Part shown: positions 13,882 to 14,233 of the stretch, in pieces | Position numbering within the stretch: the stretch's first letter is position 1 | Layout: each line of letters starts with the position of its first letter | IMG/VR virus record: IMGVR_UViG_3300014205_000201 | Reading direction: 5' to 3' (one strand) | DNA from: a virus | Lineage: Duplodnaviria > Heunggongvirae > Uroviricota > Caudoviricetes | DNA length: 23,129 nucleotides | Program-made: the position numbers and the translations under genes | Notes under the pieces: model-generated | What the model saw: the letters and a program-made list of their open reading frames with translations, nothing else | Told to the model about the DNA's origin: nothing | Databases searched by the model: none

Positions 13882-14233
13882 TTATTGACGAGTACGTAGC
13901 ACCATGAATCCACCGACAACTGCTGATTTAACCACAATCCAGATGGTATCTGAACTATTATGATTGCAGCAGCCGCAAGGACCACAGGGAGCACGGTCAT
14001 CAGTTGTAGACCACCATATGTAGCGTTGGTAATGTTAGTTATGGTTGTATTAGCAGAACCAGTTGTAGCTGGCATTGAGCTTGCAACGTTGGCTACGATT
14101 TCCGCAGAAACCATAATCAAAATTGCGGCAATGACTACTGCTAAGATTGTGTAGGAACTCGGTATGGGTATCCTCTTGCACCCATAACTACATTTAAAAC
14201 CCCGCGCTTGTTGCGTAGGAGTTTGCCGAACAT
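13882..14233 (-). CDS. Putative major capsid protein of spindle-shaped-virus type, three exons: join(14233..14176, 14146..13960, 13927..13882), 96 aa
   Basis: Spliced product MFGKLLRNKRG-VLNVVMGAILAVVIAAILIMVSAEIVANVASSMPATTGSANTTITNITNATYGGLQLMTVLPVVLAAAAIISAVVGGFMVLRTRQ*. Exons sum to 58+187+46=291 nt. It has a basic leader ending KRG, two hydrophobic helices and three N-x-T sequons in the loop, with its own promoter and terminator. Confidence 0.75.
13928..13959 (-). other. 32-nt BHB-type mRNA intron (intron 2)
   Basis: RNA parse: GCUGCUGC|AAUC|AU^A|AUAGUUCAGAU-ACC-AUCUGGAUUGU|GGUU|AA^A|UCAGCAGU, with a 4-bp central helix, an 11-bp intron helix and a 7-bp exon helix. Removal gives GCA ATC ATA TCA GCA (AIISA) in frame. 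Confidence 0.82.
14147..14175 (-). other. 29-nt BHB-type mRNA intron (intron 1)
   Basis: RNA parse: GUUAUGG|GUGC|AA^G|AGGAUAC-CCAUACCGA-GUUCCU|ACAC|AA^U|CUUAGC. Removal gives ATG GGT GCA ATC TTA (MGAIL) in frame; retention gives a UAG after 30 codons. Confidence 0.75.

Follow-up and report, generated by a model that had tools for sequence, protein, structure and literature searches.

The 23,129-nt stretch of DNA analysed here (IMG/VR virus record IMGVR_UViG_3300014205_000201, hereafter the window) carries on its minus strand a small gene whose coding sequence is interrupted twice. The second interruption, 32 nt at 13928..13959, is very probably an archaeal bulge-helix-bulge (BHB) intron inside its coding sequence; the gene, which would encode a glycosylatable protein of two helices belonging to a membrane or virion, lies on an apparent Bathyarchaeia virus or virus-like element. 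Coordinates are those of the window and its features are collected in Table 1; related loci and related proteins carry L and P numbers, respectively.

In the list of open reading frames (ORFs), the gene falls into three pieces in three frames of the minus strand. The ATG at 14233 opens a 30-codon frame beginning MFGKLLRNKRGVLNVVMGA... and ending in a stop, a second frame encodes two hydrophobic segments, and past 13959 the conserved reading moves to the third frame. Searching the window by tblastn with intron-less relatives returned exactly three high-scoring segment pairs (14233..14177, 14150..13959 and 13926..13885), with no second copy of the gene anywhere in the window. When 14233..14176, 14146..13960 and 13927..13882 are joined, they yield 291 nt, i.e., 96 codons plus a stop, with no internal stop.

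The position of the 32-nt insert was determined from alleles that do not have it. Querying 5.8 billion proteins with exon 2 gave 13 relatives, seven of which (P0006, P0008, P0011, P0012, P0001, P0005 and P0009) are uninterrupted and read ...LP[VI]VLAAAAIISAVVGGFM..R.RQ, their full-length forms being 96-98 amino acids (aa) long. Intron-less metagenomic homologues read ...VLAAAAIISAVVGGFMVLRTRQ up to the stop, precisely what the canonical cut would leave, and alignment of the window with four DNAs that are intron-less here leaves a single gap of exactly 32 columns. We also enumerated every deletion of 12-69 nt against the consensus protein, and only two registers restored it, 13928..13959 and 13927..13958, which an A/A ambiguity makes indistinguishable in the resulting mRNA. 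Given the intron-less alignments and this enumeration, the 32-nt insertion is established by homology, independently of structure. The initial annotation of this DNA had held that the canonical cut is the sole one giving AAAAIISAVVGG; the intron-less homologues do encode this stretch together with the remaining C-terminus, although the register slid by one is its equivalent at the mRNA level. The mature RNA left by the canonical cut would be functional, its spliced frame matching the intron-less homologues residue for residue.

The archaeal tRNA-splicing endonuclease EndA has an established cut position in its substrates, namely after the second base of each 3-nt bulge. In minus-strand order, the insert and its surroundings run GCGGCUGCUG-C-AAUC-AUA-(11-nt arm)-ACC-(11-nt arm)-GGUU-AAA-U-CAGCAGUUGU. 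Two 3-nt bulges, AU^A and AA^A (the caret marking the predicted cut), are found on opposite strands with the 4-bp helix AAUC/GGUU between them, and this core is flanked by helices on both sides, as in the hBHBh' type: 11 bp on the intron side and 10 bp on the exon side, the latter past a C·U mismatch. Of the outer-helix positions A01-A10, nine are paired in the window. Register 13928..13959 thereby combines a central helix of 4/4 with an intron stem of 11 and an exon helix of 10; register 13927..13958 has a central helix of 0/4 and no BHB. The initial annotation had described most of this fold from the letters alone, and its description holds at the positions listed in Table 1: the central helix is fully paired with one G-U, the two bulges and the 11-bp intron stem with three G-U and an ACC triloop are in place, the flanking exon codons pair with each other (Ala codons with Ser-Ala-Val codons), and the proposed 7-bp exon stem GCUGCUG/CAGCAGU beyond one C-U mismatch turns out to be the core of the 10-bp helix. 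Both long helices were also recovered when 13910..13980 was folded with RNAfold (minimum free energy (MFE) -26.2 kcal/mol, z = -3.75 against 200 shuffles). Moreover, a custom BHB scanner, which required a central helix of 4/4, 3-nt bulges and helices on both flanks, ranked 13928..13959 first across the whole minus strand. When the 23-kb strand was dinucleotide-shuffled 100 times, with intron lengths of 12 to 120 allowed, two of the shuffles contained a match of equal quality (central helix 4/4, exon helix at least 7, intron stem at least 10), and the motif is unusual even taken alone.

The same site is occupied in another lineage. In L009, a 3.1-kb contig of a Bathyarchaeia metagenome-assembled genome (MAG), a 31-nt insert splits the corresponding Ile codon after the same two bases and has a canonical BHB of its own, CAUC[AU^A]...GGUG[CA^A]. 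A script-made table of base pairs in the two loci revealed compensatory changes from window to L009 at central pair B1 (A-U to C-G) and at exon pair A03 (U-A to A-U), and the C·U mismatch of the window is a C-G pair in L009. The two introns cannot be aligned with each other, and still the structure is retained. The L009 junction, AAAAII-AAVMG, is confirmed by the intron-less P0014/L028, which is 98% identical to L009 exon 3 over the aligned segment. Two more relatives, available as proteins only, bear on this site. In P0015, with the sequence AAAAII-AKQFGWIAIK-SAVVGG, 30 nt are translated through, and the Lys codon at the end of that segment is compatible with AA^A as the 3' bulge; P0018 stops two codons past AAAAII.

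Inserts of this kind are a property of the gene family (~96 aa), in which seven sites spread over about 290 nt, all verified in DNA, hold BHB inserts of 27-32 nt; the assemblies concerned are independent of one another and come from JGI, ENA, Logan and GenBank. Across 13 inserts in the consensus-restoring register, the central helix is 94% paired and the first three intron pairs 95%, and sliding the 3' partner by 1-3 nt lowers these figures to 31-51%; the exon helix pairs less well, with 62% in the canonical register vs 29-46% in slid ones. Pairing also persists through base changes, since introns sharing a site in the relatives are homologous, those at the VLN site having an identical loop and two A-U to U-A swaps in the stem, and compensatory changes in the central helix affect pair B2 at the VLN site (C-G to G-C) and pair B3 at the VLA site (G-C to A-U). 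L009 has another 31-nt insert in helix 1 after VIAV (central helix 3/4, 5-bp stem), perhaps at the AVVI site or perhaps at a separate one, which brings its inserts to four, and odd ORF ends in P0023, P0025 and P0037 suggest an additional site after TGSA.

The protein is conserved beyond the insert as well. Compared with seven homologues in the spliced frame, exon 3 shows 52 synonymous vs 7 non-synonymous codon differences, and 56 of 77 base differences fall on third positions of that frame. Inserts of 27, 28, 29, 30, 31 and 32 nt occur in the family, and most of them would frameshift the gene or bring in stops; therefore, their removal is needed for the conserved protein to be made.

These observations bear directly on the competing explanations, the best of which, though improbable, is that the 32 nt are a disabling DNA insertion, e.g., a small palindromic element, which is kept in the RNA and makes the window copy a pseudogene. 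Such an element could account for an insert that is largely an inverted repeat with 11-bp arms and for an unspliced frame that stays open to 13878, yet it would have no reason to place a central helix and both 3-nt bulges exactly at the consensus-restoring cut, which is the case here and likewise for 13 inserts at seven sites in independent assemblies. Most of these inserts would break a gene that is under strong purifying selection, also downstream of them, and the window holds neither a second gene copy nor a target-site duplication. Such a duplication, or a miniature inverted-repeat transposable element, was considered and rejected, as removing 37 nt, made up of one copy of the 5-nt repeat AATCA and the 32 nt between the copies, fails to restore the frame.

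Several points nonetheless weigh against an intron. The weak central 4-bp helix is open in the MFE fold, but the full BHB model of a 67-nt piece comes close, at -23.3 kcal/mol vs -25.2 for the MFE, a difference of only 1.9 kcal/mol. The C·U mismatch adjoins the 3' bulge, making the motif near-canonical and imperfect. The exact site is present in two DNA sequences only, with covariation there amounting to two pairs, and splicing is predicted on comparative data. The exact allele of the window is found in no other record, which a recently disabled copy, though improbable, would also explain. As for the host, it is assigned from short, low-coverage MAG contigs, and a search for CRISPR (clustered regularly interspaced short palindromic repeats) spacers, in which 401 Bathyarchaeia genomes were compared with 20 kb of the window and, separately, with the gene in its intron-less form, gave no spacer match: it returned short, chance-level matches only, the best three outside repeat arrays, with a low sensitivity (two candidates scored per genome).

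Two other explanations fare worse. It is very unlikely that ribosomes bypass the 32 nt in the manner of phage T4 gene 60, or that some other recoding acts on uncut RNA: although a stable hairpin lies in the gap, as it does in gene 60, bypassing requires matched codons, and here the take-off codon would be AUA vs AAA before the resumption point, while inserts elsewhere differ in their flanks but keep the BHB geometry, and in some of them in-frame stops occur, not always at one position. An assembly or sequencing artefact is scarcely credible; the window is a single assembly, but an artefact would not produce a BHB whose cut restores the frame, nor analogous inserts in the independent JGI, ENA, Logan and GenBank assemblies. 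A group I or II self-splicing intron, with a core of hundreds of nt, does not fit into 32 nt and no Rfam match was found in the window; an intein is rejected on size as well.

Taking 13928..13959 to be a BHB intron, we infer the splicing itself, the enzymes, the host and the circularisation of the intron as follows. The gene would be transcribed from the minus strand, and in the pre-mRNA the upstream Ala codons would pair with the downstream Ser-Ala-Val codons to form the outer helix, exon AAUC would pair with intron GGUU to form the central helix, and the remaining intron would fold into the 11-bp hairpin. Host EndA would then cut past the second base of each 3-nt bulge, and the ligase RtcB would connect ...AAUCAU with AUCAGCAG..., and by the resulting change of frame helix 2 would read ...AAAAIISAVVGGFMVLRTRQ. 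The predicted junction, ...GCAAUCAU to AUCAGCAG..., connects 13960 to 13927, and likewise 14176 would be connected to 14146. The 32-nt intron would be released, probably as a circle. Intron 1 would be excised likewise; in unspliced RNA the reading frame ends after 30 codons, and by this reconstruction both introns must be removed to yield the protein.

The ORFs of the window yielded no EndA or ligase domain, and the putative host offers both. A search of 1.84 billion clusters gave 141 representatives of the family at E <= 1e-3. Among 401 Bathyarchaeia genomes, three contigs of a single MAG carry clear members, as do two other MAGs, which points to Bathyarchaeia as the likely host. The MAG with three family contigs encodes RtcB and two EndA paralogues (185 and 201 aa, at L014 1456-2013 and L015 1471-2076), each with N-terminal and catalytic domains. 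Only EndA of the (alpha-beta)2 and epsilon2 types is reported to cut non-canonical introns (PMC5829648), and the two paralogues would fit a heterotetrameric enzyme of broad specificity.

Table 1. Positions of the interrupted gene, its predicted introns and flanking motif in the window, and insertion sites across the gene family
Feature	Position	Strand	Description
Exon 1	14176..14233	minus	MFGKLLRNKRGVLNVVMGA plus first base of next codon; ATG 14231..14233
Intron 1 (predicted)	14147..14175	minus	29 nt; relaxed BHB, central helix GUGC/ACAC 3/4
Exon 2	13960..14146	minus	Rest of helix 1, loop with three N-X-T sequons, most of helix 2
Intron 2 (predicted)	13928..13959	minus	32 nt; third base of 5' bulge to second base of 3' bulge
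Exon 3	13882..13927	minus	First base completes Ile codon, then SAVVGGFMVLRTRQ; stop TAA 13882..13884
Outer (exon) helix, 5' strand	13967..13976	minus	Ala codons; partner 13916..13925, 10 bp
Outer (exon) helix, 3' strand	13916..13925	minus	Ser-Ala-Val codons of exon 3
C·U mismatch	C13966·U13926	minus	Between outer and central helices
Central 4-bp helix, exon side AAUC	13962..13965	minus	From BHB scan
Central 4-bp helix, intron side GGUU	13930..13933	minus	Pairs with AAUC, one G-U
5' bulge AU^A	13959..13961	minus	Predicted cut 13960/13959, from BHB geometry
3' bulge AA^A	13927..13929	minus	Predicted cut 13928/13927, from BHB geometry
Intron hairpin	13934..13958	minus	13948..13958 with 13934..13944, 11 bp, three G-U
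Intron hairpin loop ACC	13945..13947	minus	From sequence
Archaeal TATA-box-like motif TTTTTAAAAGTAA	14313..14325	minus	Upstream of gene; from sequence only
Site within Asn codon of VLN			Carriers L007, L010
Site after MGA			Carriers window intron 1, L002, both L008 paralogues, L012
Site after AVVI			Carrier L007
Site after AQI			Carrier L009
Site after VLA			Carriers L007, L010
Site after VLAA			Carrier L002
Site within second Ile codon of AAAAII			Carriers window, L009

Intron 1 has a 4-bp intron stem and the bulges AA^G and AA^U, and its site is occupied by inserts of 31 nt in L002, 27 nt in both tandem paralogues of L008 and 28 nt in L012. Upstream of the gene, the TTTTTAAAAGTAA motif may serve as an archaeal TATA-like promoter element, and similar TTTAAAAG motifs precede the gene in L008, L009, L012 and L013. 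About 35-50 nt downstream of the stop codon there is a small conserved hairpin, GGGUCAGGGGCAACCC (13833..13848, minus strand), identical in L007 and L010/L011 and with variants in L002 and L005, which may be a terminator or an element of the 3' untranslated region (UTR).

Elsewhere in the window, moderate BHB matches on the minus strand number 21 vs 7.4 expected from shuffles. Candidate in-frame BHB-like inserts on this strand are 9062..9121 (60 nt), 9763..9831 (69 nt) and 11404..11514 (111 nt), situated within a PKD-domain ORF and a beta-helix ORF. On the plus strand, 14032..14080 forms a BHB-like motif that is as rare in shuffles as the minus-strand intron, with an exon helix of 7, a 15-bp intron stem (7 G-U) and three G-U in the central helix, antisense to the conserved loop-coding segment. 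It is probably due to chance, because the strand is locally GT-rich and the pairing rich in G-U.

Site occupancy differs among closely related contigs, and while the exon-2 and exon-3 peptides of the window and L007 are identical, their introns are at entirely different sites. The introns are best explained, on comparative grounds, as insertions with a fast turnover. Two introns located 18 nt apart, L012 123..150 (MGA site) and L007 2838..2868 (AVVI site), match at 15 of 17 nt (shuffling p = 2e-4), suggesting that one intron moved between these sites. In the tandem paralogues of L008 (9972..9998 and 10415..10441), the 27-nt intron and its flanks are identical and the protein loops differ by an insertion, suggesting duplication after intron gain, or gene conversion. 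Public ORF calls are affected too: P0004, P0007, P0010 and P0015 read through in-frame 30-nt introns, which places charged 10-residue peptides (e.g., FGYTRDTQPN, KIYPRDISLK) in the middle of a transmembrane helix, and other calls begin or end at introns. Intron-less alleles could already pair 5-7 of the 10 outer-helix positions at the intron 2 site, compared with nine in the window and eight in L009. As runs of GCN Ala codons are self-complementary, they supply ready-made exon helices, and the few sequences at hand suggest that Ala-rich hydrophobic helices are pre-adapted splice sites.

The encoded protein was modelled with AlphaFold2 as two helices, 9-43 and 68-95 (mean predicted local distance difference test score 70). 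It combines two hydrophobic helices with a short loop bearing N-glycosylation sequons (three N-X-T), features that have been described for capsid proteins of spindle-shaped archaeal viruses (PMC10541130) and mark the VP1 type. No family for it was found in Pfam or PHROGs. The VP1 of SSV19 (7xdi_A) was the sole PDB sequence match of profile A1, and a weak one (E = 0.095); with the broader profile A4 it appeared at E = 1.9 among generic membrane proteins. Foldseek returned nothing significant from the PDB (E > 1), with 7xdi_A second by target-normalised template modelling score (0.53), and the nearest named ESM Atlas clusters, VP1_VP3 (0.86) and His1_capsid (0.82), were both below the 0.9 level, the nearest clusters being 88-100% viral. 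These are weak leads, and membership among VP1-type capsid proteins is unproven. Exon 1 and the family N-termini comprise a basic stretch, with K/R-G at its end, and then a long hydrophobic helix, an arrangement that resembles a class III (prepilin-type) signal, and Geopilin and PilA chains are among the marginal PDB matches of the broad profile.

The window as a whole looks like a virus or virus-like element, judging by the placement of all its genes on one strand, its beta-helix and PKD proteins, its endonucleases of the HNH and NUMOD3 kinds and its large family-less ORFs; related contigs span 54-57 kb. A scan of IMG/VR viral contigs confirmed no relatives, blastn against GenBank phage and archaeal virus records gave no match, and tRNA and Rfam scans of the window returned nothing. 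The minus strand also harbours a glycosylation and modification module (11922..13082, 2962..5268 and 3..1420), consisting of two ORFs with GT4 domains, a radical-SAM enzyme, two methyltransferases and, adjoining the HNH gene, a PMT_2 (GT-C) glycosyltransferase, and this module fits the three N-X-T sequons of the loop.

The neighbouring genes (encoding a 491-aa protein, a 128-aa protein, HNH and PMT_2) are collinear and lack intron-type interruptions in all loci compared, and as far as this comparison reaches, the inserts appear specific to the one gene. The PMT_2 gene of L012 has a gapless frame change at about 1750 and is intact in the near-identical L013; this break probably reflects faulty sequencing or a frameshift mutation rather than an intron. 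The HNH endonuclease gene (13079..13750, minus strand) lies directly downstream of the intron-bearing gene. All eight relatives with flanking DNA have an HNH homologue on the contig, directly downstream in seven of them; this position is kept in L002, L007, L008, L009, L012 and L013, and in the intron-less L005 the HNH gene is upstream on the opposite strand. The HNH homologues are mutually 32-48% identical. Further upstream in the window is a NUMOD3-motif endonuclease-like gene (19961..20914, minus strand).

A speculative and rather unlikely view is that the mini-introns are mobile among co-infecting Bathyarchaeia viruses and are kept for breaking DNA targets within the most conserved gene of the virus, either CRISPR protospacers or recognition sites of the neighbouring HNH enzyme. 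The protein would be unchanged, the interruption in the DNA being erased at the RNA level by the tRNA-splicing enzymes of the host. Such camouflage would explain why introns differ in position in near-identical proteins, why they cluster in one gene and why an HNH gene is a near-constant neighbour. The spacer search of the 401 Bathyarchaeia genomes, itself of low sensitivity, gave no support for protospacer disruption, and any link between the HNH gene and the introns is hypothetical.

If 13928..13959 and its counterparts are indeed spliced, archaeal viruses would depend on the tRNA-splicing machinery of their hosts to express an essential protein. The family would also provide a natural, fast-evolving system in which to follow the arrival and movement of BHB introns, with many alleles in which each intron is present or absent, and it indicates self-complementary runs of Ala codons as pre-adapted insertion sites. 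Standard gene callers mis-annotate such genes, as seen in the read-through peptides and truncated ORFs of the databases, and the idea that introns protect against DNA-targeting defences or endonucleases is now testable.

Among known systems, phages harbour group I introns in structural or essential genes with free-standing HNH or GIY-YIG genes as neighbours, an arrangement termed collaborative homing. The window resembles it in having a conserved viral gene interrupted and an HNH gene adjoining; unlike group I introns, however, the inserts are far too small for ribozymes and would depend on host enzymes. In the unconventional splicing of HAC1/XBP1 mRNA in eukaryotes, a protein endonuclease acts together with RtcB to take out a tiny intron, 26 nt long in XBP1, and the C-terminal frame shifts as a result. 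There, in contrast to the present case, IRE1 recognises twin stem-loops, and the splicing is a regulated stress response acting on the cell's own mRNA; the role of RtcB in this type of splicing has been noted (PMC8718801).

Closer parallels come from archaea, in which genes for tRNA and rRNA are the familiar locations of BHB introns. In Haloferax volcanii, the 5' UTR of the HVO_1309 mRNA has a BHB intron that is processed by EndA (PMC7714728), an instance of EndA acting on mRNA, although that intron is in an untranslated leader and interrupts no frame. Thermoproteales and Asgard archaea have non-canonical tRNA introns, for which transposition is described in Thermoproteales (Fujishima 2010, summarised in bioRxiv 10.64898/2026.10.13.758758); they are like those described here in being short BHB elements at many positions, with repeated gain and related sequences at different positions (here L012 and L007), and unlike them in that our substrate is an mRNA with a frame to restore and the carrier a virus-like genome. 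By 2020, the BHB introns reported in mRNA were those of cbf5 and of one 5' UTR only (Schwarz et al. 2020; PMC7714728). In full-text searches of the literature, we found no BHB intron in a viral protein-coding gene, and a survey of Bathyarchaeia viruses makes no mention of introns (PMC10541130). The nearest precedent is the cbf5 pre-mRNA of Crenarchaeota (Watanabe 2002; Yokobori 2009, PMC2738675), in which a BHB intron lies in a coding region, is removed by the tRNA-splicing endonuclease and has been gained or lost among relatives. Unlike cbf5, which does housekeeping in the cell and has a single intron at a single site, the gene in question is of a viral structural type with two predicted introns in the window, and its relatives hold up to four, distributed over seven sites in about 290 nt and each 27-32 nt long. 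The mechanism is already known; what is new is its carrier, together with the density, small size and site polymorphism of the introns.

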